A DNA stretch of 64,000 nt from Clostridiales bacterium (GTDB taxonomy: Bacteria > Bacillota > Clostridia > Peptostreptococcales > T1SED10-28): contig SKOH01000087.1 of the NCBI GenBank assembly GCA_007120165.1, forward strand, positions 1,167 to 65,166, written 5' to 3'. The translations under genes were made by a program, and so were the position numbers. The notes under the pieces were generated by a model, which was not told where the DNA came from, did not search any database, and saw nothing but the letters and a program-made list of their open reading frames with translations. Below are positions 10,720-26,496 of this stretch, piece by piece (within the stretch, counting starts at the first letter, position 1; each line of letters starts with the position of its first letter).

Positions 10720-12039
10720 CTAGAGGATTAAGTACGCCACCGGCGCCGCAATCAATATGGTAAGGATCGTCCGCTCTATCCAGATAATGACCATTTCCGT
10801 GATGCTGATCGGAATTTCCGTGGCGACAATACAGGGAATGGAAGCAGAAAAGAACAATATGGAGGAAACGCAAACCACTCCAATCACATACTGGGTGATC
10901 AGCGGAGCCTCCACCACCATCAGTGCCGGCAGAAACATTTCCGCAATCCCCATGGAAGCCGCTTCCGCCGCCAATAAGGGCTCTGGAATTCTGGTCAGCA
11001 GGGTAAAGGGATAGAAGATGAAACCTACAAAACTGAATAGCGGCGTATACTCTGCCAGCAGCAGGCCTACGAGACCCACGGACATAATCGACGGCAGGAT
11101 ACTGAATACCATATAAAATCCATCGACAATATTTTCTTTGATGTTCTGTTGGAAGCTCTTGGAAAAATGTGCGGCTTTTAATCCTTCACTCCATGCATTT
11201 TTAAAAATATTGCCCTTCATTTTTACCTCCGGGTGGCCTTCCCCTTCAATATAGGTCTCTTTTTTCCGGTTCAGCGGCCATATCCGGATAACAATTGCGG
11301 TAACCAGAAAGGTAATCAGTAATGTGGACCAGAAGTACCGGTTCCACATATCCATCAGCCCTAAGGTATTGGCCACAATTACCATAAATGTGGCGGAAAC
11401 CGTGGAGAATCCGGTGGCAATAATTGAGGCTTCCTTTATCGTGTATTTTCCTTCTTTAAAGACCCGATTGGTAATCACAAGACCTAAGGAATAACTGCCT
11501 ACAAAAGAGGCTACCGCATCGATTGCCGACCGTCCCGGAGTTTTGAATATCGGACGCATGACCGGGCGCATGATGACCCCGATGAATTCCAGCAGTCCGT
11601 AGCCTACCAGAAAAGCCAGAAAAACCGATCCGATGGGCACAATCAGACCCACAGGAATGACCAGGGCGTTGTATAAAAATGGACCGATGGAGGGGGCTAA
11701 AATCCACTCCGGTCCGAAATTCAAGTACACCATAAAAGCCACCAGGACCCCTAAAATTTTAAATCCGGAAAAGACCCGGTCCACAGTGGAGTTGTTCCAG
11801 GTTTTCTTGACAAAGGGGATCACAGCCCCGATTACGATTACAATCAATGCATAAAGCCGGGCAAAGGCCGCCCCATTATTTCGAATCCAGGAGACGATAT
11901 GATCCAGCGGAATCGTTCGGGTCCCCGCGATCTCCAACGGAACAAAAAACATAAAAAACCCGATAAAGCTGAACAGTACCAATTTAAGGGCATTTTTATT
12001 ATTATGGAAATTCTGCTGATTGATCTTTTTTTCTGACAT
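10720..12039 (-). CDS. YjiH-family (nucleoside-recognition gate domain) membrane transporter
   Basis: Polytopic protein with PGRSAIDAVASFVGSYSLG, IATGFSTVS and GIAEMFLPA motifs. Confidence 0.75.
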   Translation of the reverse strand: MSEKKINQQNFHNNKNALKLVLFSFIGFFMFFVPLEIAGTRTIPLDHIVSWIRNNGAAFARLYALIVIVIGAVIPFVKKTWNNSTVDRVFSGFKILGVLVAFMVYLNFGPEWILAPSIGPFLYNALVIPVGLIVPIGSVFLAFLVGYGLLEFIGVIMRPVMRPIFKTPGRSAIDAVASFVGSYSLGLVITNRVFKEGKYTIKEASIIATGFSTVSATFMVIVANTLGLMDMWNRYFWSTLLITFLVTAIVIRIWPLNRKKETYIEGEGHPEVKMKGNIFKNAWSEGLKAAHFSKSFQQNIKENIVDGFYMVFSILPSIMSVGLVGLLLAEYTPLFSFVGFIFYPFTLLTRIPEPLLAAEAASMGIAEMFLPALMVVEAPLITQYVIGVVCVSSILFFSASIPCIVATEIPISITEMVIIWIERTILTILIAAPVAYLIL

Positions 12040-12185: not shown

Positions 12186-13502
12186 TTATAAAAGCATCGC
12201 ACCGATAATTCCGAAAATCATAATCGGAATATTAAAGTGAATAAAAGTCGGCACGCAGGTATCCCAGATGTGGTCGTGCTGTCCATCCACACTGAGACCC
12301 GCTGTAGGTCCAAGAGTACTGTCCGAGGCCGGTGAACCGGCATCTCCAAGCGCTGCTGCGGAACCGATCAACAGGACCGTTGCCATCGGACTGAATCCAA
12401 GTTCTGCCGCAAGGGGTACGTATATGGCTGCAATAATCGGAATGGTTCCAAAGGAAGTCCCGATACCCATCGTGATCAACAGACCAATCGTAATCATTCC
12501 TGTCGCGGCAATCAGCTGATTATTTCCAATTACCCCGCTTACAGAATCGACTAAGGTCTCTACCCCGCCGGTTGCCCGTATCACATCACCGTATCCGGAA
12601 GCTACAAGCATTACGAAGGCGATAAAGCCCATCATGCCGATCCCGCTTTTAATCATGTCGTCGATACCGGTCCATTTAATCGCGCCGCCGACTAACATAA
12701 TTGCAAGGCCCAGGATAGCCCCCAGTGCTAAGGAACCTACCGTTAACTGAACCACTAAGGCCGCTAAAGCTCCGATCACCGTGATGGCGTGATTTTTGTT
12801 AAACTTCACATCCTCCACTGCCTGCTCCTGAAGACCAAACTCTGTTCCGGTCTCTTCAGCGGGTAAGTATTCTCTTGGTTTTCGATAAGTAAAAAGAATT
12901 GCAATAAACAGACCTACCACCATGGCCAGTCCGGGAATCCACATTACGTGCCAGATTTCGCCTTCAACCAGTTCCAATCCGCTGGCTGCCATTTCATCTC
13001 GAATAATACCGTGAAAGATCAGACCAAAACCTACCGGCAGAGCGACATAGGGTGCTTTCAGACCAAAAGTCAAGGCGGAAGCCACGGCTCTTCGATCAAT
13101 TTTTAATTTGTTCATCACCATAATCAATGGAGGAATCAGAATTGGAATAAATGCAATGTGTACCGGAATTAAATTTTGTGAAAAAATACTGATGAATGCA
13201 ATAATAAAAACTAAGGATTTTCCACTACCGGTCATGCTTTTTGATAGTTTCTGGGTAATAATCGTGGCTGCTCCGGTTTTGTGAATCGCTGCAGCCAGAG
13301 CCCCAAGTAAAATGTAGTTCAACGCCGTACTGGCGTTACCTCCCATACCGCCAATCAGGGTATCCATGGTTTCCATTAAGGGCATATTTGCCACAAGACC
13401 CCCAACCACGGCGGCGATGATCAATGCAAGCAATACGTTAAGTTTCAATAAGGATAATGCCACCATTACAATAACTGATATTACAACGGGATTCGTTAAC
13501 AT
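12186..13502 (-). CDS. YuiF-like (Na+/H+ antiporter NhaC-superfamily) amino-acid permease; probable histidine transporter
   Basis: MLTNPVVISV..., FGLKAPYVALPVGFG, GIGTSFGTIP, GDAGSPASDSTLGPTAGL, HDHIWDTCVPTF. Lies directly downstream of hutH. Confidence 0.75.
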   Translation of the reverse strand: MLTNPVVISVIVMVALSLLKLNVLLALIIAAVVGGLVANMPLMETMDTLIGGMGGNASTALNYILLGALAAAIHKTGAATIITQKLSKSMTGSGKSLVFIIAFISIFSQNLIPVHIAFIPILIPPLIMVMNKLKIDRRAVASALTFGLKAPYVALPVGFGLIFHGIIRDEMAASGLELVEGEIWHVMWIPGLAMVVGLFIAILFTYRKPREYLPAEETGTEFGLQEQAVEDVKFNKNHAITVIGALAALVVQLTVGSLALGAILGLAIMLVGGAIKWTGIDDMIKSGIGMMGFIAFVMLVASGYGDVIRATGGVETLVDSVSGVIGNNQLIAATGMITIGLLITMGIGTSFGTIPIIAAIYVPLAAELGFSPMATVLLIGSAAALGDAGSPASDSTLGPTAGLSVDGQHDHIWDTCVPTFIHFNIPIMIFGIIGAMLL

Positions 13503-13665
13503 GTTCTCACTCCTTTAGTTGAATTTTTTTGAATATTATTACTTAAGTAAATATTATATTAACATAACGTCTCCATTTCGTCTATAAAATAAAAAAACTA
13601 CCGGCAACAAGGCCGGAAGTTTCTTATATTATTGTCCTGTGCTGTTGTCTGCAATAATCTTTTTT

Positions 13666-15189
13666 CTAAATACTTAAGGCTCCAATGGATTTTTCCACTG
13701 CCTGCAGAATTTTTTCATTATCAATCAGCTCCGAGGCGATATTGATATCTTTGTATAGAATCCGGTCTTCCTTAAGAGGGGTCAGTACCTCCCGGATGGT
13801 ATTATAGGCCGGTTCAGTTCCAAGGCCCAATTCCTTATGTTCATGAAACTCAATACCCTGGGCTGCTGCCATCAGTTCAATTCCCAAAACTCTGGAACTG
13901 TTAAAGACAATATCTCTGGCTTTTCTTGCAGCAATGGTTCCCATACTGACGTGATCCTCTTGATTTGCCGATGAAGGAATGGAATCCACACTGGCGGGAT
14001 GGGCAAGCACCTTATTCTCTGATACCAGAGCCGCCGCCGAGTACTGTGCGATCATAAATCCGGAGTGCAGTCCTCCTTTTTCCGTCAGGAAGGCGGGAAG
14101 TCCGCTAAGTTGAGGATTCACCAGCCGTTCGATTCTTCTTTCCGAAGCGTTGGCCACCTCTGCCATGGCAATCCCCAGGTAATCAAAGGTCAACGCCATG
14201 GGCTGACCGTGAAAGTTTCCGCCGGAAATCACGTGGTCTTCTTCGGTAAAAATTACCGGATTATCGGTTACGGAGTTCATTTCAATTTCCACTTTTTCCA
14301 GCACATATCGAAGGGTGTCCTTTGTAGCCCCGTGAATTTGAGGAATGCAACGAAGACTGTAAGCATCCTGCACCCGTATTTCTCCCTGTCTGGTGGTAAG
14401 TTTGCTGCTGTCCAGCAGCCGTCTTAAGTTGGACGCGGTATTAATTTGTCCCTTGTGGGGTCTGACCTCATGCAGCTTCGGGTCAAAGGCGTCAGTGATC
14501 CCGTTTAGGGCTTCAATACTGAGGGCCGAGGAGATATCCGACATCTTCGCCAACACAATGGCTTTATGAAGGGTCAGGGCACCAACCGAAGTCATCGCCT
14601 GGGTGCCGTTAATCAGACCCAATCCTTCTTTAGAAGTCAGCGTAATGGTTTCAATGCCGGCCTGGTCCATGGCCTCTTTCCCGGTCATTCTTTTACCTTG
14701 ATAGACGGCTTCCCCTTCGCCGATCATAACCAGTACCATATGGGAAAGGGGAGCTAAGTCTCCACTGGCTCCGAGAGACCCTTTTTCAGGAATAATCGGA
14801 TGCACCCCTTCATTTAACATATTAATTAAGGTTTCTATCGTCTTAATCCGAACACCGGAATACCCTTTTGCCAGAGCATTGGCCCGCAGCAGCATAATCC
14901 CCCGGGATTCCTCCTCGGAAAAAGGATTTCCCACGCCGCAGGCATGACTGATGATTAAGTTCCGCTGCAGATCTTCGGTTTCTTCCTTGGAAATTGCCAC
15001 ATCACTGAATTTACCAAAACCCGTGGTGATTCCATAAGCCACCCGCTCTTCATTTACATAACGCTCTACCAAGTCCCGGGATTCCTGGATTTTCTCTTTT
15101 GCCTCTTCCGCCAGGGAGACCTTCTGCTGATGCACTGCAATATCAACAAAACCTTGTAAATTTAATGAGTTACCGTCTAGTTTAATCAT
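13666..15189 (-). CDS. hutH: Histidine ammonia-lyase
   Basis: YGITTGFG; MIO-forming GSLGASGDLAPL; RVQDAYSLRC; SGGNFHGQP; SANQEDHVSMG. Start moved to ATG 15189 behind AGGAGG. Confidence 0.97.
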   Translation of the reverse strand: MIKLDGNSLNLQGFVDIAVHQQKVSLAEEAKEKIQESRDLVERYVNEERVAYGITTGFGKFSDVAISKEETEDLQRNLIISHACGVGNPFSEEESRGIMLLRANALAKGYSGVRIKTIETLINMLNEGVHPIIPEKGSLGASGDLAPLSHMVLVMIGEGEAVYQGKRMTGKEAMDQAGIETITLTSKEGLGLINGTQAMTSVGALTLHKAIVLAKMSDISSALSIEALNGITDAFDPKLHEVRPHKGQINTASNLRRLLDSSKLTTRQGEIRVQDAYSLRCIPQIHGATKDTLRYVLEKVEIEMNSVTDNPVIFTEEDHVISGGNFHGQPMALTFDYLGIAMAEVANASERRIERLVNPQLSGLPAFLTEKGGLHSGFMIAQYSAAALVSENKVLAHPASVDSIPSSANQEDHVSMGTIAARKARDIVFNSSRVLGIELMAAAQGIEFHEHKELGLGTEPAYNTIREVLTPLKEDRILYKDINIASELIDNEKILQAVEKSIGALSI

Positions 15190-15228
15190 TATTATAAACC
15201 TCCTAATCAACTGTTTAATTATATCCTA

Positions 15229-18200
15229 TTAATCCTCCGTCGCTAAACCGTCTAATCTTCGTAAAATATCAATCTCGTAGCAGCCATGGATTTTCTCCAG
15301 ATTTTCAATTCCCTTCCTGCAGTACCATGAAAGAGTTTGGGGCAACAGCTCCTGAAGGGATTCTGGAACCTGTTTTCGCTCCGTCATTTCCCGCTTAATG
15401 GCACTTTTGATACGATAGATGATCCCCCATTCGTAGGGACTTTTAATTTTATCACTGTATTTTACACCCCGGCTTAAACAGTCCTGGGCTTTATAATAAT
15501 CTCCCTCCCGAAAATATATAAGGGCCATAAAGCCTTCCGCCGTGGATCTACCCCAGACCACATCATACTTTCCGTATAGGCGCAGTCCTTCCTTTAAATA
15601 CCCCTTGGCCCGGATAAAATCCCCCCCGTCGAAGGCTGCCTGACCGGCTTTCGTATAAAACATATTCAGGCTGCGGGTGATATTATGATCATTGCATATT
15701 TTAATGGCTTGATCATAATACTTTAAGCCTTCAAAGAATTTCATCTGGGATCTTCGAACTTCCCCTAAATAATTGTAGCCCGCGGCAATATTGAGTACAT
15801 ACTTCTCCCTGGATTTAGAGATCTGACTAAACAGCCGAATGGAGTGGCGCAGGGTCTCATCCGCCTGGTCGTAGGCGCCGGTCATCAAGTAGTAGACCCC
15901 CTGCAGCCGGTAAAAAACCGCTTCTTCCTTAGGGTAATCAATGATCTTTAACAATTCCATGCCCTGCTCGATATTTTTTCTGACCGCATCGATGTCATGA
16001 ATCTGTATACCATGATAAATTCGCTGTTTATAGCCCTTAACCGCATTTCGGTAATCCTTATGCTCCAGGGCCACTTGAATCATCCGGTCAATATGATCCA
16101 GCCCGGATTTATAGGACCCTTCCCAAATCAGGTACCTCCCTTTGATGTAGTGAAAATACATCTCTTCTTCCGCAAAGTCCCGATTGCGGGAATTACTTTT
16201 CTTTCCCTTATTCAGGTAATATTCAATATCCTTCATCGCTTTGGTCATTTGTCTTTTGGACAGATTAAACTGGCTGAGATCCTCTCCGGTATGCTGATCG
16301 AGTACCGGAAACAGCTCATGGGTGAAATCCACATGCTGATTCAGATTTTTAATGCTGTACTGCAGGGTTTTTTCATAATCCTTCGCCCGGGAAAAATGAT
16401 AAATCAGCTTGGAATACAACAGTCGATCTCGGTTCCCCTGATTCAGCTGTTCCTCCAAGATATCTGCAATACGGGTGTGAAGAATTTTCCGCTTTCCTTT
16501 GCTTTGTCTGAGATAACAGTATTCCCGCAGCTTTTGATGAGTGAAGCGGTACTGGATTTCCTCCCCGTCTTCATCCTCTTCAAGAATTCCTTCCTTGGCC
16601 AGAGCCTCCAGATGGTTGATCAGCTCCAATTCATCCCATCCGGTTAATGCTTTCAATCCTTCAAAGTGGACCTTATCAAAAAATATCGAGGCCATATCTG
16701 CAATCTCCTCTTCTTTTTTCGATAAACTCCTAAAACGGGTTTTCAGCAGATCCTCGATTTTCGGGGTGAAACCGGAAAAATCCCCCTGATTTAACAGCGC
16801 ATGAAGGTATTCCACAATGAAAAAAGGATTCCCTTCGGTTTCATGGTAAATTTCCTTTGTTACACTCCCGGGAGGTCCGACTTCCTTTGTTGCCCCCTCC
16901 TGCTGGTTGGCCTTCTTATAATAAGCCTGATAGCTTTTCATAAAGGCCAGGGTCTCTTCTTTGGTAAAGCGTTCCAGCTGAATCCTTTCCAACCGGTTTT
17001 CTTTACTTAGCTCCGAGAGGAAAAATTTCATATCTCGATTTTCCCCGAGCCGTAAGGTTCCCATCAGCTGCAGTTTTGGGGAATGGATTTTGACCAGCAG
17101 ATTTTCCAGCAGGCGCAGACTTTTTTCATCCATCCACTGCAGATCTTCAAAAACCAGTAAAATTTCCCGATTGCGAAGGACCCGGAGGAAAATTTCCACA
17201 ATCGCTTCTTCCAGCAGCTGGTCCTGGACTTTTCCTTTTCCGAAAAAGTGGTCTTCAGGCTTATCCTCACCGGGGACAAAGTGGGGAAATACCCCGGCAA
17301 TGATACTGCTCCAGGGCTCCGGCAAATATATATCTTCTTTTCTGATTATCGGTATCAGTTTTGAAACGATGGCGTTCCAAGGCTTGAGAATATAATCTTC
17401 CTCTGCAGCGTAGCAATTGGAAGAAAGGAGGGTTTTATTTTTCCATAGGGAATCCCTCAGGATTTCATCCTTTAAACTGGTTTTTCCAATGCCCGCTTCT
17501 CCCAGAATAATCAAGGCGCTCTTCCCTTTCTGGTCACCGGAATCCTCAATAAATGATTTTCCTATGTCCAGCTCTCTGCTCCGTCCGAAGAAAAGACTTT
17601 TTTCTTCCTTTCCCTCCCGGGGTTTTTCTTTATTTTCTCTTTGTTGAATTTCCTGATAAATCCGCTGGGTTTTCTCATCGGGGGTAATGCCCATCTCTTC
17701 AAGCAAACACGCCTCGAGTTTCTGATAAACCTCTAAGGCCTTGGAACTGAGCCCCAGGGCCTGGTATACTTCCATCAGTTTTCGATAACCCCGCTCATCA
17801 AACTCATCTTCCCGGATCACTTTTTTGCATTCTTTCTCCCCCTGTATGAAGTTTCCGTTGTTGATTGCCTGATCGATCTTCTCAAAGGATTTCTCAATGT
17901 AAAGGTTCCGGTAGAAGTTTCGAAGCTCTTCCACCCATTGGGCAAATCCCTCTTCCCCTTTAATATAAAAACCCTTTAAAAACTCGCCCTGATACAGTTC
18001 CAATATATTATCGGGATCTGATTGAATCCTCTGGATATCGCTCTCCACCGGCAGTTCCTTATTCATCATCACCATGGATTTTTTAGGGGAGTGGACAATC
18101 TCCAAGCCAAAAGCTTTCCGGGTTTTATACATGGCGTTTCTGAGATTCTTCTTGGCCACCTCTTCACTGCTTTCCCCCCAAAAAAGATTGACCAGTTCTT

Positions 18201-18330
18201 CCCGGGTGCCCTGGTTTTGTACAATTAAATAATAAAAAAGGGCTTCCGCCTTTCGGTAGGGAAAGAAGAGTTTTTCTCCATTTTTATATACTCCGGGAGT
18301 TCCGAATAAGTTGACTGTAATTTTATCCAT
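15229..18330 (-). CDS. Large transcriptional regulator: wHTH + BTAD + STAND (AAA_16) NTPase + TPR-like C-terminus (AfsR/MalT-like architecture)
   Basis: N-terminal YRKAEALFYYL...REELVNLFW...KKNLRNAMYKTRK; BTAD-like DEFDERGYRKLM; Walker A GEAGIGKT; Walker B LLVFEDLQWMD; TEGNPFFIVE; helical repeats. GAGGAG RBS before ATG 18330. Confidence 0.85.
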   Translation of the reverse strand: MDKITVNLFGTPGVYKNGEKLFFPYRKAEALFYYLIVQNQGTREELVNLFWGESSEEVAKKNLRNAMYKTRKAFGLEIVHSPKKSMVMMNKELPVESDIQRIQSDPDNILELYQGEFLKGFYIKGEEGFAQWVEELRNFYRNLYIEKSFEKIDQAINNGNFIQGEKECKKVIREDEFDERGYRKLMEVYQALGLSSKALEVYQKLEACLLEEMGITPDEKTQRIYQEIQQRENKEKPREGKEEKSLFFGRSRELDIGKSFIEDSGDQKGKSALIILGEAGIGKTSLKDEILRDSLWKNKTLLSSNCYAAEEDYILKPWNAIVSKLIPIIRKEDIYLPEPWSSIIAGVFPHFVPGEDKPEDHFFGKGKVQDQLLEEAIVEIFLRVLRNREILLVFEDLQWMDEKSLRLLENLLVKIHSPKLQLMGTLRLGENRDMKFFLSELSKENRLERIQLERFTKEETLAFMKSYQAYYKKANQQEGATKEVGPPGSVTKEIYHETEGNPFFIVEYLHALLNQGDFSGFTPKIEDLLKTRFRSLSKKEEEIADMASIFFDKVHFEGLKALTGWDELELINHLEALAKEGILEEDEDGEEIQYRFTHQKLREYCYLRQSKGKRKILHTRIADILEEQLNQGNRDRLLYSKLIYHFSRAKDYEKTLQYSIKNLNQHVDFTHELFPVLDQHTGEDLSQFNLSKRQMTKAMKDIEYYLNKGKKSNSRNRDFAEEEMYFHYIKGRYLIWEGSYKSGLDHIDRMIQVALEHKDYRNAVKGYKQRIYHGIQIHDIDAVRKNIEQGMELLKIIDYPKEEAVFYRLQGVYYLMTGAYDQADETLRHSIRLFSQISKSREKYVLNIAAGYNYLGEVRRSQMKFFEGLKYYDQAIKICNDHNITRSLNMFYTKAGQAAFDGGDFIRAKGYLKEGLRLYGKYDVVWGRSTAEGFMALIYFREGDYYKAQDCLSRGVKYSDKIKSPYEWGIIYRIKSAIKREMTERKQVPESLQELLPQTLSWYCRKGIENLEKIHGCYEIDILRRLDGLATED

Positions 18331-18431
18331 ACACGCACTCCCTCTCTTCACCTTCATTTCACCAGTTAACATTCTTTTTTACCGGTTCTTTTGCGCAAGT
18401 CTTAAGTTCTTATCAAATGATCTACTTTATC

Positions 18432-18460
18432 ATTATATCTCATTCTAATTCTTCCGTAAA
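18432..18460 (-). promoter_or_regulatory. sigmaA-type promoter for the regulator-hutH unit
   Basis: Minus strand reads TTTACG-17 bp-TATAAT. Confidence 0.55.
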
Positions 18461-18462
18461 AC

Positions 18463-18494
18463 AAAAAAATCGGAGCAGATTTTCTACTCCGATT
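18463..18494 (-). terminator. Intrinsic terminator after pruA
   Basis: AAATCGGAG-N10-CTCCGATTT followed by a U tract on the minus strand. Confidence 0.7.
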
Positions 18495-18519
18495 TAAACT
18501 GTGAATTTTTCACTGTAAT

Positions 18520-20226: not shown

Positions 20227-21504
20227 CTATCGGTAAACCGCAGGACTGCCTTCTTTATCGTAAACCAGTTTTCCGTCTTTGATAACCTTTTCCACGGTGC
20301 TTACCCCAATATGGTAAGGGATGAATTTATAGGATTCGAATTCCAGTAAAATCATATCCGCTTTCTTGCCTGCATCAATGCTGCCGATGGTATCGGCACG
20401 GTCCAGGGCTGCCGCTCCGTTTATCGTAAAGGCGGTGATGGCTTCCTCGGTGGAAATATTCATATACAGCGTTGCCAGGGAAAAAATCAACGGAATGGAT
20501 TCGGAAAAACAGCTTCCCGGATTCAAATCCGTGGCTAAGGCTACCGCGGCGCCCCGGTCAATCATCTCCCGTCCCCGGGCATATTTTTCCTTAAGGCTGA
20601 AGGCCGTACCGGGCAGCAAGGTGGCCACCACGCCTTCCTTTGCCATTTGATCAATCCCTTCATCCGAGGCTTGCAGTAAATGGTCCGCAGAAACCGCTCC
20701 CAGTTCCGCTGCAAGCTCGGCGCCTCCTAAGGGAACAATTTCATCCGCATGGAGTTTTACTTTCAGGCCCATTTCCTTGGCCTTGCTTAACAGTCGTCGG
20801 GACTGTTCGATACTAAAAACGTTTTTTTCACAGAATACATCACAAAATTCGGCGAGTTTTTTCTCCACCACCACCGGCAGGACGTCGTTAATGATTTCCT
20901 CAATCATTTCATCCTCCCGGCCCTTATACTCCTTGGGTACCGCATGGGCTCCCAAGTAGGTTTTTACCACTTCAATGGGATGGTCCCGGTCGGTATCCTG
21001 CATAACCTCCAATTGCTTTATTTCCGTATCAAAATCCAGTCCGTACCCGCTTTTTCCCTCTACCGTGGTGACCCCGAAGGACAGCATCGAGTCCAGGCGT
21101 TTCATCCCGTCCCGGTAAAGTTCCTCTTTTGAAGCGGCTTTGGTTTGACGTACACTGCTGAGAATGCCGCCTCCCCGGTTCATGATGTCCATATAGTCAT
21201 CTCCCCGAAGTCTCCAGGAAAACTCCTCCGCTCGGTAGCCTCCCCAAATATAGTGGGTATGGGAATCCACAAATCCCGGTAACAGGGCCTTTCCGTCAGC
21301 ATCCAGGACATCGTATTTTTCTTCATCATACTTCTGGAGAATTTCCGATTGAGGCCCCACGGCTTTAATGATGCCGTCTTCCACAACCACCGCTCCTTTT
21401 TCAATGATTCCCAGATCCGACATTTCCTTACCCTTTTTTGCAGTAAATCCGGAACACGTTACCACTTCCGAGGCATTTTTGATGATCATATTTCTTTTAT
21501 TCAT
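20227..21504 (-). CDS. hutI: Imidazolonepropionase
   Basis: PGFVDSHTH, GVTTVEGKSGYGL, KLHADE, SADHL, ALATDLNPG. Confidence 0.95.
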   Translation of the reverse strand: MNKRNMIIKNASEVVTCSGFTAKKGKEMSDLGIIEKGAVVVEDGIIKAVGPQSEILQKYDEEKYDVLDADGKALLPGFVDSHTHYIWGGYRAEEFSWRLRGDDYMDIMNRGGGILSSVRQTKAASKEELYRDGMKRLDSMLSFGVTTVEGKSGYGLDFDTEIKQLEVMQDTDRDHPIEVVKTYLGAHAVPKEYKGREDEMIEEIINDVLPVVVEKKLAEFCDVFCEKNVFSIEQSRRLLSKAKEMGLKVKLHADEIVPLGGAELAAELGAVSADHLLQASDEGIDQMAKEGVVATLLPGTAFSLKEKYARGREMIDRGAAVALATDLNPGSCFSESIPLIFSLATLYMNISTEEAITAFTINGAAALDRADTIGSIDAGKKADMILLEFESYKFIPYHIGVSTVEKVIKDGKLVYDKEGSPAVYR

Positions 21505-21559
21505 TGGTACATCGCTCCTTTCTGTGAACCTTTAATTTTTTATTGATGGAACTTATAAC

Positions 21560-21592
21560 AATAGCATAAGCACCCGCGGTACTTATGCTATT
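21560..21592 (-). terminator. Stem-loop between ftcD and hutI (terminator or mRNA stabiliser)
   Basis: Minus strand AATAGCATAAGTACC-GCG-GGTGCTTATGCTATT: 15-bp stem with one G.U pair and a weak U tract. Confidence 0.5.
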
Positions 21593-21695
21593 ATGATCCT
21601 AAAGATCTTTTTTATTCCATTTTATAATATACCCTGCGGATAACCTTTTATTCAGCCCCCTTGGCTGAACTTTGAAGGTTTATTGGAATCTTTCT

Positions 21696-22592
21696 TTATT
21701 CCATAATCCGCTGTTCCAATATCTGATCCATCGAGAAGTCTTCCACGCCAAGATAATACACAGCAGTGTCAATTAACGCTTCCATCGGCAGCAGGCCGAT
21801 AATTTCCGAACCTACCACATTCACACCGTAGCGCTTTGCTTCAATTTTAATCATTTCAAATACCCGGTATAAAGCGGTTTTTGTAAAGTCCGTCATATTC
21901 ATTGAAACCTGTACAATTCCCCGGTCCTTCAGTTCTATGCCAATGCCTTTGCAGTACCTGAACCCGCCGCTTAAATGGCGGACATTCCTGGCAATCTGAT
22001 TGGCAAAATCAAGATTGTCCGTATCCAGGTTGACATTAAAGGCAACCAGGGGCATTCTAGCTCCCACTGCGGTGATGCCTGCGGTGGGATGGATTTTTCT
22101 GCCGCCGAAATCCGGCTCCCATTCCTCCTGCTGTACTTTTTCTTCCATTCCCTCAAACTGTCCTTTTCTTACCTTGGCAAGGTTTTGTCTGTGTAGGGCC
22201 GAAGCCGAATTTTCATAGAGGAAAATCGGCAGATCATATTTTTCATTTACCGCCTTGGCCACTTCCTTGGAAAGTTCAATGGCCTCATCCATGGTCACGT
22301 TTTTGATCGGAATAAAGGGAACCACATCGGTCGCCCCCATTCTTGGATGCTGTCCTTCGTGTCTGGTCATATCGATTTCGTTAATGGCCGTGCCAATGGC
22401 CTCAATTACCGCTTCCTTTAACGGATCCGGTTCTCCCACCAGGGTTACCACGGTCCGGTTATGATCTTCATCGGAGCTGTAATTCAACAGTTTTACCCCG
22501 TTTTTTCCCCGGAAGGCTTCGACGATTCGATCCACTTTTTTCGGATCTCTTCCTTCACTGAAATTCGGTACGCATTGTACGATCTTGTTCAT
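21696..22592 (-). CDS. ftcD: Glutamate formimidoyltransferase (transferase domain only)
   Basis: CVPNFSEGR, DHNRTVVT, HEGQHPRMGATDVVPF, VQVSMN. Confidence 0.95.
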   Translation of the reverse strand: MNKIVQCVPNFSEGRDPKKVDRIVEAFRGKNGVKLLNYSSDEDHNRTVVTLVGEPDPLKEAVIEAIGTAINEIDMTRHEGQHPRMGATDVVPFIPIKNVTMDEAIELSKEVAKAVNEKYDLPIFLYENSASALHRQNLAKVRKGQFEGMEEKVQQEEWEPDFGGRKIHPTAGITAVGARMPLVAFNVNLDTDNLDFANQIARNVRHLSGGFRYCKGIGIELKDRGIVQVSMNMTDFTKTALYRVFEMIKIEAKRYGVNVVGSEIIGLLPMEALIDTAVYYLGVEDFSMDQILEQRIME

Positions 22593-22663
22593 TTGTATAA
22601 TCCCCTTTCATTTTGAAACTGCTCGCTGAATCGCAGATTCAGTTAATTATTTCACGAATAATC

Positions 22664-22700
22664 AGCCCTATCCGAAAGATTTTTTCTTTCAGATAAGGCT
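22664..22700 (-). other. Intercistronic 16-bp stem-loop directly after the hutU stop
   Basis: Minus strand AGCCTTATCTGAAAGA-N5-TCTTTCGGATAGGGCT with two G.U pairs. A second small hairpin CTGAATC-GCA-GATTCAG follows. Confidence 0.55.
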
Positions 22701-22707
22701 ATAGGTG

Positions 22708-24744
22708 TTATTTTTTATTTTTTTCAAAGGCTGAGGCTACTAAATCCTCTACTAAGCCTTCTCTCGGAATATAGGGAATCGTAATATGATCCGCTCCGGT
22801 ATTTTCTTTATTGTATTCGATACTGGTAGTGATGGAGTTTTCATTTCTGGCCCAGGCCCGTCTTGCAACGCCGCCCATAACATCCCAGGGCATGGCGGTA
22901 CTAAGAATATCATCCACTCTTCGGCTTCCGTCAAGAACCATTCCGAAGCCTCCGTTGATGGATTTTCCGATCCCCACGCCTCCGCCGTTATGAAGGGCAA
23001 TCAGGCTCATGCCCCTGGCTGCATTTCCGGCGAAGCACTGGGTAGCCATATCCGCCATGACATTGCTGCCGTCTTTAATATTGGCGGTTTCTCTAAAGGG
23101 TGAATCGGTGCCGCTGACGTCGTGGTGATCCCGTCCAAGCATAATCGGACCCACTTCCCCTTTTCGTACCATTTCATTAAATTTCAGTGCAATTTTTGTC
23201 CGTCCCATGGCGTCCTGATAAAGAATTCTTGCCTGGGTGCCCACAACCAGTCTGTTTTCCTCCGCATCCCGAATCCAAACGTAGTTATCCCGGTCCTGGC
23301 CCCGTCGATCCGGGTCTATGCAGTCCATGGCCGCTTTATCGGTCTTTTGAAGGTCCTTAGGGTCTCCGCTTAGGCAAACCCATCGGAAGGGTCCATAACC
23401 ATAGTCAAAGAGCTCCGGTCCCATGATGTCCTCCACATAGGAGGGGAAAATGAAACCATCTTTGTCATCAATCTTATTCTTGGAAATCTCCTTTACTCCC
23501 GCATCGTATACCGCTTTCATAAAAGAGTTTCCGTAATCAAAGAAGTAGGTTCCCCGCTCGTCCAGGGTTTTGATCAGCTCAAAGTGTCTTTTCAGGGTGT
23601 CGTCCACCATTTCCTTAAACTTTTCCCGATCCGTCTGAAGCAGTTCGGTCCGTTCTTCGAAGGAAAGTCCCTGGGGACAATAGCCTCCATCGTAAACTGC
23701 ATGACAGGAAGTCTGGTCCGATAACAGCTCAATTTTTTCGTGATTTTCCACGGCATACTCCAGCAGATCCACAATATTACCATGGTAGGCAATAGAGATG
23801 GGCTCCCGTTTTTCCATATATTCCTTCGCGGTGTCGAAAACTTCTTTTAAGTCGCTGGAAATTTTACTGACCCACCCTTGATCATATCGGGTTTTAATTC
23901 GGGAGTAATCAACCTCTGCCACAATCCCGACGCCGTTGGCAATTTCTATGGCCTTTGGCTGGGCACCACTCATGCCCCCAAGTCCCGAGGAAACGAACAG
24001 ATGTCCCCGTAGGTCCTGATCATCGGCGATGCCAAGCTTTTTCCGCCCGGCGTTGACAATGGTATTAAAGGTGCCGTGGACAATTCCCTGAGGGCCGATA
24101 TACATCCATCCCCCGGCAGTCATCTGCCCGTAATTGGCAACGCCCATCTGTTCTGCAATCTCCTGATCCGTAATATTATCAAACATTCCGATCATTAAAG
24201 AATTGGTAATGATTACCCTTGGGGCTTTTGGATGGGATTTAAACAGTCCCAGGGGATGGCCGGATTCCACCACTAAGGTCTGATCCTCCGTCAATTCTTC
24301 CAAATATCTCTTTAACAGCTGATACTGCATCCAGTTCTGGCACACCCGTCCGGTTTCTCCGTAGGTTACCAGCTCATAGGGGTATAGAGCAATGTCAAAG
24401 TCCAGATTGTTGTCAATCATCACCTGCATCGCTTTTCCTTCAAGACATTTTCCTTTATATTCATGGACCGGTTTTCCTTTGATTTCCCCCTCCGGCCGAA
24501 AACGGTAGCCGTAGATTCTTCCCTTGGTCATCAGCTCCTCCAGAAATTCCGGAGCCAAGGTTTCGTGCAGGGACTCGGGAACATAACGGAGGGCGTTTTT
24601 CAACGCCACTTCCGTCTGGTCCTTGGATAATTTAAATCCCCGATTGGGAGCTCTACGGATTCCCTCCTGAAAAATCGGATCCTTCGGCAACTGATCCTCC
24701 AGTTTAATGGTCATTGCCTGAGATACATCAAAATTGCTGCTCAT
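22708..24744 (-). CDS. hutU: Urocanate hydratase (long, ~680 aa form)
   Basis: YPYELVTYGETG, QMTAGGWMYIGPQGIVHGT, DQTSCH, GRDHHDVSGTDSPFRET, LHNGGGVGIG. Confidence 0.96.
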   Translation of the reverse strand: MSSNFDVSQAMTIKLEDQLPKDPIFQEGIRRAPNRGFKLSKDQTEVALKNALRYVPESLHETLAPEFLEELMTKGRIYGYRFRPEGEIKGKPVHEYKGKCLEGKAMQVMIDNNLDFDIALYPYELVTYGETGRVCQNWMQYQLLKRYLEELTEDQTLVVESGHPLGLFKSHPKAPRVIITNSLMIGMFDNITDQEIAEQMGVANYGQMTAGGWMYIGPQGIVHGTFNTIVNAGRKKLGIADDQDLRGHLFVSSGLGGMSGAQPKAIEIANGVGIVAEVDYSRIKTRYDQGWVSKISSDLKEVFDTAKEYMEKREPISIAYHGNIVDLLEYAVENHEKIELLSDQTSCHAVYDGGYCPQGLSFEERTELLQTDREKFKEMVDDTLKRHFELIKTLDERGTYFFDYGNSFMKAVYDAGVKEISKNKIDDKDGFIFPSYVEDIMGPELFDYGYGPFRWVCLSGDPKDLQKTDKAAMDCIDPDRRGQDRDNYVWIRDAEENRLVVGTQARILYQDAMGRTKIALKFNEMVRKGEVGPIMLGRDHHDVSGTDSPFRETANIKDGSNVMADMATQCFAGNAARGMSLIALHNGGGVGIGKSINGGFGMVLDGSRRVDDILSTAMPWDVMGGVARRAWARNENSITTSIEYNKENTGADHITIPYIPREGLVEDLVASAFEKNKK

Positions 24745-24761: not shown

Positions 24762-26432
24762 CTAAAATAATCCTGTGATGGTTCCTTCTTCGTCAATATC
24801 CATTTTTTCTGCAGATGGAACTTTAGGAAGTCCCGGCATAGTCATAACGTCTCCGGTTAGGCAAACGATGAATCCGGCTCCTGCGGATACGTTTACTTCC
24901 CGTACGGTAATATCAAAACCTGTGGGTGCTCCCAGTAACGTCGGATCGTCGGATAAGGAGTATTGGGTCTTTGCCATACAAATCGGCAGTTTGTCCAATC
25001 CGAGTTCTTCAAGTTTTTGAATCTGCTTTTTCGCTTTTCCGGTAAAGACTACTTCGTTACCACCATAGATTTCTCTAACAATGGTTCCCACTTTTTCCGG
25101 AATGGAGGCTTCAACTTCATATAAAGGTCTATAATCCGCTTCCCCTTTTTCTACAATGCCTACCACCTTTTCAGCCAGTTCAATTCCGCCTTCTCCTCCG
25201 GCAGTAAATACTTCGGACAGTGCCACTTCCACACCCAGCTCATCGCAAAGGGTTCTCATAGCATCGATTTCTGCGTCGGTGTCTGTCGGGAATTTATTCA
25301 TTGCCACAACTGCGGGTAAACCGAACTTTCGAATGTTTTCCACTTGCTTTTTAAGATTTACAAATCCTGCAGTAAGCGCCTCTACATTTTCTTCCTGTAA
25401 ACTCTTTTTGTCCACGCCGCCGTGCATCTTCAGTGCCCGAATGGTACCGACAATCACTACAGCGTCCGGTCGTAATCCGCCGTATCGACACTTGATGTCT
25501 AAGAATTTCTCAGCTCCAAGGTCTGCACCGAATCCGGCTTCAGTTACCGCATAGTCTCCTAACTTAAGAGCCATTTTGGTAGCCATGATACTGTTGCAGC
25601 CATGGGCAATATTTGCAAAAGGTCCGCCGTGAATGAAGGCTGGCGTGTTTTCCAAAGTTTGTACCAGGTTCGGCTTCATCGCATCTTTCAATAATAGCGC
25701 TAAGGCCCCCTGAATGTTTAACTCTCTTGCATACACCGGCTTATTCGTTCTTGTATAGGCAACCACAATGTTTCCAAGTCTTTCCTTAAGGTCTGCTAAG
25801 CTGTTGGCAAGACATAACGTTGCCATAATTTCCGATGCAACGGAGATCATAAAGCTGTCCTGTCGGGTAAATCCGTTTCCTTTTGGTCCAAGACCCACCG
25901 TTACTTCCCGTAGCGCACGGTCGTTCATATCCAGTACCCGTTTCCAAACAATTTGTCGCATATCAATATCCAAGGCGTTTCCCTGGTGAATGTGATTGTC
26001 AATGGTTGCAGATAACAGGTTGTTTGCAGTGGTAATGGCGTGCATATCTCCGGTAAAGTGAAGATTAATGTCTTCCATTGGAACTACCTGTGCATATCCG
26101 CCTCCCGCAGCTCCGCCTTTTACACCGAAAACCGGTCCTAAGGAAGGTTCCCGAAGGGCGATTGCGGTTTTCTTGCCGATTTTATTCAGTGCCTGGCCCA
26201 GTCCTACGGTGGTGGTTGATTTTCCTTCACCGGCGGGAGTAGGGTTGATGGCTGTCACTAAGATTAATTTTCCGTATTCTTCCTTTTCCAGTCGATCAAA
26301 TAAATCAAGGGATACCTTTGCTTTATAATGTCCATACATCTCCAGCTCTTCGCTTTTGATGCCTGCCTCCTCAGCGATTTCAGAAATATACTTCATTTTT
26401 GCCTGTTGTGCAATTTGAATATCAGTTAACAT
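24762..26432 (-). CDS. fhs: Formate--tetrahydrofolate ligase
   Basis: [63 protein letters not shown]. Confidence 0.97.
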
Positions 26433-26457: not shown

Positions 26458-26486
26458 ATAATAGTATGATAACTTTCCACCGTCAA
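26458..26486 (-). promoter_or_regulatory. sigmaA-type promoter at the head of the fhs-hut cluster
   Basis: Minus strand TTGACG-17 bp-TATTAT, ending about 25 bp before the fhs ATG. Confidence 0.6.
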
Positions 26487-26496
26487 TTTTACGTCG

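Follow-up and report, generated by a model that had tools for sequence, protein, structure and literature searches.

Two groups of transcriptional activators bear most closely on the gene described here: the large SARPs of Streptomyces and the STAND activators of catabolic operons. Within the first group, AfsR of Streptomyces coelicolor (SARP-NOD-TPR; PDB 8K60, 8HVR, 8JKE) answers to phosphorylation; no ligand of it is known, and the AfsR paper leaves open whether an inducer binds its sensor domain (PMC10936776). Promoters of SARP targets follow a rule in which direct repeats lie 11 (or 22) bp apart and the 3' repeat, which overlaps the -35 element, stands 8 bp away from the -10 element, and cryo-electron microscopy of AfsR has placed two SARP protomers side by side on such repeats, over the -35 element, where they touch the core of RNA polymerase and region 4 of sigma (PMC10936776). 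The SARP-LAL regulators of Streptomyces (PimR, SanG, and PolR) join an N-terminal SARP to an LAL/guanylate-cyclase-like ATPase half without a LuxR helix-turn-helix, and their operators are heptameric direct repeats with 4-bp spacers (an 11-bp period), which lie over the -35 element in SanG and PolR (PMC5930380). In the second group, MalT and GutR are switched on by an inducer and then by ATP binding, as summarized in PMC10936776 from Liu et al. (2013) and Poon et al. (2001). A 2024 review describes SARPs as exclusive to actinobacteria and to secondary metabolism (PMC10972967). Here we describe a gene, called REG below, that encodes a protein with a SARP, a STAND ATPase, and TPR repeats at positions 15229..18330 (minus strand) of a 64,000-nucleotide stretch of a Clostridiales bacterium genome (contig SKOH01000087.1 of assembly GCA_007120165.1; this whole stretch is the window, to which unlabeled coordinates refer). 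REG stands amid genes for histidine utilization (hut), and its product is very probably a pathway-specific, class-II-like activator of these genes, gated by ATP and a ligand. We infer its DNA binding, the direction of control, its ligand, and the role of ATP from computational support of four kinds: protein architecture, linkage to hut genes, an operator-like motif, and the co-occurrence of that motif with the regulator.

REG has an open frame at 15229..18372 on the minus strand, and we placed its start at ATG 18330 because the N-termini of homologues fit this choice and a ribosome-binding site (GAGAGGGAG) accompanies it. The translation then has 1033 aa plus a stop, in agreement with an earlier note on this DNA that had seen a protein of about 1030 aa between pruA and hutH, and its N-terminus (MDKITVNLFGTP...) aligns with all homologues (M..I.VKLFGTP...). 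The translation, Pfam matches, an AlphaFold2 model, and Foldseek together delimit three modules, all encoded on the minus strand. First, residues 1-243 (17602..18330) form a SARP DNA-binding module, in which an OmpR-type winged helix (about residues 1-110) is directly followed by a BTAD helical bundle (PF03704 at residues 124-243, 53 bits against a cut-off of 22.1). Second, residues about 250-630 (16441..17583) form a STAND nucleotide-binding and oligomerization module with Walker motifs and an AAA_16 match (residues 261-426, 50 bits, cut-off 32.6). Third, residues about 633-1033 (15232..16434) form an all-helical TPR sensor region of stacked helix pairs, with TPR repeats at residues about 818-972 (TPR_12 and TPR_2 at 862-972) and a partial TPR_MalT match (26.7 bits, under its cut-off of 45). 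For the ATPase half, Pfam lists AAA_16 and a weak NACHT match, not NB-ARC, and an NCBIfam kinase/cyclase-fusion match falls there as well; Pfam lists no LuxR/GerE domain in REG, which is TPR up to its C-terminus.

The AlphaFold2 model, built on 38 homologues, has a mean predicted local distance difference test score (pLDDT) of 83.5, with most of the TPR region at 80-95, and begins with winged-helix strands and helices that give way to a helical bundle. Compared with the PDB by Foldseek, REG matches 6mfv_A, a protein of STAND-TPR architecture (E 4e-16), as well as Apaf-1, CED-4, and Avs3, and its first ~250 residues resemble the SARP chains of AfsR over 250-256 columns (8k60_J, template modeling (TM) score 0.68 on the target over 256 columns; 8hvr_I, TM 0.67). 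Among the fold matches listed, the AfsR entries are matched by the SARP part only. At the level of sequence, the family profile weakly reaches AfsR (residues 40-232, E 0.003-0.008), and phmmer found no match to REG among PDB sequences. The 38 homologues, which share these motifs at only 34-82% identity, keep invariant the Walker A residues G277, G280, G282, and K283 (GEAGIGKT), the Walker B residues D396, W399, and D401 (VFEDLQWMD), R427, and F596-x-H598-x-K600-x-R602 (FTHQKLRE) in the winged-helix subdomain; K61, L63, R64, and Y68, also invariant, sit in the putative recognition helix. Because of these Pfam domains, the AfsR-like SARP fold, and the invariant STAND motifs, we regard REG as a large SARP, with an ATPase that is probably of the AAA_16/LAL rather than the NB-ARC kind and without a LuxR helix-turn-helix. 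The presence of Avs3 among the fold matches raises the idea that REG is an antiphage STAND protein that sits in the hut cluster by chance, but its SARP domain is of a DNA-binding kind, neither a nuclease nor a protease effector accompanies it, and its neighborhood is conserved and metabolic, with no defense island; on these grounds we rejected a defense role, which seems to us barely credible.

By domain content REG is closest to the SARP-LAL regulators PimR, SanG, and PolR, sharing with them the SARP, an AAA_16/LAL-like half, and the lack of a C-terminal LuxR helix-turn-helix (the comparison with the PimR type was made by description). They differ in being actinobacterial and devoted to antibiotic clusters. 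AfsR has the same order of modules as REG, but the similarity in sequence is marginal, its ATPase is of the NB-ARC kind whereas that of REG is AAA_16 in Pfam, and its target is a regulator of secondary metabolism, whereas REG comes from a clostridial anaerobe and has a catabolic operon as its predicted target. In GutR, too, the DNA-binding region is N-terminal, and the ATPase is of the NB-ARC type. Both GutR of Bacillus subtilis and MalT of Escherichia coli act as we propose for REG, as pathway-specific STAND activators of catabolic operons that respond to inducer and ATP in the account summarized by PMC10936776, and differ from it in serving sugars rather than histidine. The earlier note had reasoned by analogy with MalT, and the logic of a STAND activator is indeed shared; AfsR, the SARP-LAL proteins, and GutR are nevertheless nearer models, since the DNA-binding domain of MalT is C-terminal and of the LuxR type and its sites are no SARP boxes. 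Membership of REG in the MalT family was rejected, its DNA-binding domain being N-terminal and its C-terminus TPR to the end.

If REG regulates histidine utilization, its protein class and mechanism are unrelated to those of the regulators known for the same job, substrate-dependent control of hut genes: HutC (a GntR/UTRA repressor), HutP (an RNA-binding antiterminator), and the LysR and IclR types. Pfam and NCBIfam find neither the GntR winged helix and UTRA domain of HutC nor a HutP fold in REG. The earlier note had named all of these types and seen none of them here, and for HutC and HutP a genome-wide search extends that observation: in the 2.41-Mb source genome (229 contigs, 98% complete) no HutP turned up, nor any HutC above cut-off, and REG is present there in a single copy and is the sole BTAD protein.

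The association of REG with hut genes extends well beyond the window. In the window, Pfam and NCBIfam identify fhs, hutU, ftcD, hutI, and pruA on the 5' side of REG and hutH, a Na_H_antiporter-family permease, and a Gate-domain permease on its 3' side, all on the minus strand, and the enzymes score far above their NCBIfam equivalog cut-offs. Even sampling of the GTDB order to which the source belongs (151 genomes) gave homologues (E <= 1e-30) in 72, hutH in 112, and hutU in 108. Every one of the 72 regulator-bearing genomes has hutH or hutU, and by a hand tally of the reported positions in 53 of them a regulator copy and hutU or hutH share a contig and are at most 10 kb apart, with a distance of up to 30 kb in another 6; the other 13 are mostly fragmented assemblies. 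The earlier note would have been contradicted by homologues without any tie to hut genes, and the survey instead makes hut association the rule in at least ten GTDB families. Gene maps of 40 loci of 20 kb show that the link persists through rearrangement (families carry our labels). The order REG-hutH occurs in f1, f4, and f53, and the regulator lies directly 5' of hutH in all eight genomes of the source family; family f4, with identities of only 32-35%, shows this placement in 8 of its 9 genomes. Families f3, f5, and f11 have (fhs)-hutU-ftcD-hutI-cyclodeaminase (fchA)-(DegV)-regulator, in which the small genes encode 205 and 278 aa, and f2 has hutU-regulator-fhs. An even sample of 300 genomes across the class gave a match in only 8, the source genome included; outside the order, 5 of 7 homologue loci (from five genomes) lie in a hut cluster, f53 having hutU-hutI-regulator-hutH. 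The closest named relative is Isachenkonia alkalipeptolytica, and homologues also occur in Alkaliphilus, Caloranaerobacter, Clostridium, and others.

A candidate operator for REG consists of GACG-N7-GACG (an 11-bp period), 9 nt, and a -10 hexamer, with no -35 element. On both strands of the window, GACG-N7-GACG occurs at three sites against 0.63 expected, all of them at hut promoters and on the coding strand. At the fhs-hutU promoter (26466..26495, minus strand), GACGTAAAATTGACG (26495-26481) is followed by 9 nt and TATCAT, an arrangement conserved in genome G005 (locus L032). At the promoter of the NhaC-type permease (13553..13582, minus strand), GACGAAATGGAGACG (13582-13568) is followed by 9 nt and TATAAT, again conserved in G005 (L031). 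At the hutH promoter (15223..15252, minus strand), GACGGTTTAGCGACG (15252-15238) is followed by 9 nt and TAGGAT (15228-15223). This last operator sits in the final nine codons of REG (..LDGLATED*), and seven further members of the family (L002-L008) have almost the same DNA there. Since the operator and its spacer overlap the last codons and the stop of REG, the 24 bases at 15229-15252 (minus strand) serve as coding and promoter DNA at once.

Similar boxes stand in front of hut genes in other genomes, 17-126 bp 5' of the first hut gene and typically in the form ttaGACGyTTTaGnGACG-N9-TATAAT; in families f2 and f8, GACA replaces GACG in one repeat. Among 47 unique sites, positions outside the search pattern are also conserved, a T standing two bases ahead of the first repeat in 41 and TTT following that repeat in 39-40, and the -10 element is near consensus while the -35 position reads ACGyTT. 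The predicted operator resembles the afs-box of AfsR in having two direct repeats 11 bp apart over the -35 element and a 3' repeat 8-9 bp from the -10 element; its GACG core differs from CGGCAAG, the consensus heptamer of the SARP-LAL regulators.

The box is also specific, both within genomes and to genomes that have the regulator. The whole source genome contains 21 GACG-N7-GACG, of which only three, all hut sites, are followed by N9-TAnnnT; a relaxed pattern has four matches in its 2.41 Mb, three of them the hut sites; and a strict 30-nt pattern occurs exactly once, at a hut promoter, in each of three genomes of 4.2-4.6 Mb. Among regulator-bearing genomes with a hut promoter available, 38 of 39 have a box 5' of a hut gene (families f1, f2, f3, f4, f5, f8, f11, f19, and f53), including three (L100-L102) with 12-30 kb between the regulator and the hut operon. 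For a control we took 20 genomes of the order without the regulator; their hut loci, 280 kb in all, gave 0 matches to either the strict or the relaxed pattern. The tie between box and REG being one of co-occurrence, the repeat could be the site of another factor that co-occurs with REG, in which case REG would regulate something else or hut genes only indirectly. We think this improbable, as no other candidate regulator gene is found consistently in these loci, the geometry of the site is specifically of the SARP type, REG is the only BTAD/SARP protein of its genome, and the paralogues described below bring their own variants of the box beside themselves.

We propose that REG activates three hut promoters in the manner of AfsR because the geometry of the box matches the published SARP rule. 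Two N-terminal SARP domains would bind side by side on GACG-N7-GACG, which, 9 bp 5' of the -10 element, would replace the -35 element at the fhs-hutU, hutH, and NhaC-type permease promoters and recruit RNA polymerase there as AfsR does. The STAND ATPase and TPR region would hold the protein inactive until ligand and ATP were bound, as in MalT and GutR. Histidine and urocanate are the likeliest ligands, and ATP might drive oligomerization, as the earlier note conjectured. REG itself would be made from its own promoter, which carries no box, and with no terminator between REG and hutH, read-through into hutH is expected; it could provide a basal level of HutH, which a urocanate signal would require. 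The predicted regulon would comprise uptake, HutH, HutU, HutI, FtcD, and then Fhs, a biochemically sensible series.

An opposite sign of control is conceivable, since the box overlaps the core promoter and fhs has a reasonable -35/-10 pair unaided, so that REG might occlude the -35 region as a repressor or dual regulator. Most of the promoters, however, have ACGyTT at -35, no match to TTGACA, and a near-consensus -10 element, which is typical of activator-dependent promoters, and the characterized SARPs with sites of this geometry are all activators (PMC10936776, PMC10972967); repression therefore seems to us unlikely, and activation remains the reading we follow.

Several observations weigh against this reading or blunt it. 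At fhs, the second repeat (TTGACG) also suits as the -35 element of another hexamer, TATTAT (26463-26458), with a 10/12 match; for this reason basal expression from the fhs promoter is likely, and strict dependence on an activator may not hold there. The single exception to the box-regulator pattern among the 39 genomes is G075 (L040), where a 27%-identical homologue stands beside hut-like genes with no recognizable box, and in genus g9 of family f8 the homologues are truly unlinked to hut genes. The Pfam winged-helix model, Trans_reg_C, has no match in REG, and the assignment of a winged helix thus draws on the predicted fold and the conserved N-terminal motif. The box is provisionally given to REG on co-occurrence and geometry only, and the sampled genomes are related to one another, so that the counts overstate independent support; the pattern nonetheless spans many families and several gene orders.

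The scope of control could be wider than histidine. Because fhs heads the main operon and a boxed formate/nitrite-transporter gene adjoins the regulator in some genomes, REG might act more broadly, on one-carbon, formate, or amino-acid fermentation, and sense, for example, formate, folates, or the energy state. Fhs can make ATP and formate from the formyl group, and histidine breakdown by the formimino branch ends with fhs and formate export, which accommodates both genes in a histidine regulon. Moreover, the only boxes of the source genome are the three in the hut cluster, and the three FTCD_C genes elsewhere in that genome lie on box-free contigs, so we give a broader role little credence, about as little as we give repression, and retain a regulator dedicated to hut genes. 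A formate/nitrite-transporter gene (PF01226) adjoining the regulator carries a hut-type box in G057 (L099 9521-10517, plus strand) and G126 (L047 10907-11769, plus strand), which suggests that formate export is part of the regulon in these two genomes; PF01226 has no match in the source genome.

The earlier note knew of no characterized hut regulator of this class, and a literature search likewise found none, which is not proof of novelty. REG is not categorically new, since there are precedents for large SARPs as well as for STAND activators of catabolism, and what is new, as far as we found, is a SARP-type family in Clostridia, its dedication to histidine utilization, and its operator. REG is clostridial, with predicted hut targets, and thus departs from the actinobacterial host and secondary metabolism used to define the SARP family. 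If the proposal is true, REG adds a further and mechanistically distinct class of hut regulator to HutC, HutP, and the LysR/IclR types, and SARP activation, in which tandem monomers on direct repeats replace the -35 element, extends beyond Actinobacteria and serves primary catabolism as well. Few promoters make up the predicted, sharply bounded regulon, three here and one in several other genomes, and REG would for this reason be a clean system in which to study the ligand of a large-SARP TPR region and the release of its DNA-binding domain. The box could also serve as a simple annotation marker for hut regulons in Peptostreptococcales-like anaerobes.

Some homologues form a separate paralogue clade (support of 100 in the Shimodaira-Hasegawa approximate likelihood-ratio test, SH-aLRT, in a quick IQ-TREE tree, which was used only for the separateness of this clade), and promoters in the paralogue clusters carry a variant box, GACT-N7-GACG. 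The paralogues often stand in tandem with a hut-type copy; their loci are L051 7927-19421, L063 2202-12645, L054 2311-12605, L061 7631-14060, L062 299-10799, L037 325-10416, and L095. Their clusters encode a HutH-like lyase (356-534 bits, under the HutH equivalog cut-off of 539), an XDH-type molybdoenzyme (2Fe-2S, FAD, and XdhA-like subunits), and a BCCT or NhaC transporter, sometimes with AcnX; we would guess at a modified histidine or an imidazole betaine as the substrate. REG may, more tentatively, be the founding member of a clostridial SARP-STAND family that senses small molecules through its TPR region, in which the main clade would respond to histidine or urocanate and control the whole hut regulon, including fhs and sometimes formate export, and the GACT-N7-GACG sister clade would control an uncharacterized pathway with the HutH-like lyase, the XDH-type enzyme, and a BCCT or NhaC transporter. 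This wider picture is rather doubtful, but if it is true it offers a large SARP whose ligand, operator, and regulon are defined, and this among bacteria said to have no SARPs.

The remaining features of the window lie on the minus strand and concern the transcription of REG and its neighbors. An intrinsic terminator after pruA (18467..18495), a hairpin with a T-run, separates REG from the hutI-pruA transcript. It is followed by the promoter of REG, TTTACG-N17-TATAAT (18432..18460), a 10/12 sigma-A-like match that bears out the separate promoter claimed in the earlier note and has no GACG repeat pair. Likewise, the distance of about 40 bp from the stop of REG to hutH given in that note comes to 39 bp, with no terminator inside, once the start of hutH is set at ATG 15189. 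The predicted targets of the fhs promoter are fhs (24762-26432), hutU (22708-24744), ftcD (21696-22592), and hutI (20227-21504), each an NCBIfam equivalog. The other predicted targets are hutH, a histidine ammonia-lyase (13666..15189; TIGR01225, 711 bits, cut-off 539), and the NhaC/YuiF-like permease of the Na_H_antiporter family (12186..13502; PF03553), which recurs beside hutH in other genomes and is probably a histidine uptake system. No box was found 5' of ftcD, hutI, REG, or the Gate-domain permease in the source genome. Autoregulation of REG is therefore not supported, and the Gate-domain permease (10720-12039), which ends the cluster, is no predicted target there. Homologues of this permease elsewhere lie within hut clusters (L070) or adjoin the regulator (L043, L047).

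The gaps between hutU and ftcD (22593-22707) and between ftcD and hutI (21505-21695) have neither a box nor a clear promoter. Strong hairpins lie in both, for example at 22701-22663 (17 pairs, with a weak T tail), and may be processing or partial-termination sites of the fhs transcript. Formimino-tetrahydrofolate cyclodeaminase (FTCD_C), whose gene is directly 3' of hutI in most other genomes, is missing from the hut cluster of the window and has three copies elsewhere in the source genome (C91:2238-2795, C223:9547-10098, and C180:408-959), on contigs with no GACG-N7-GACG match. In regulator-free hut loci of family f10 (L082, L088, L089, and L090), a gene of 333-337 aa lies directly 5' of hutH on the same strand and may encode an alternative hut regulator or a transporter component.

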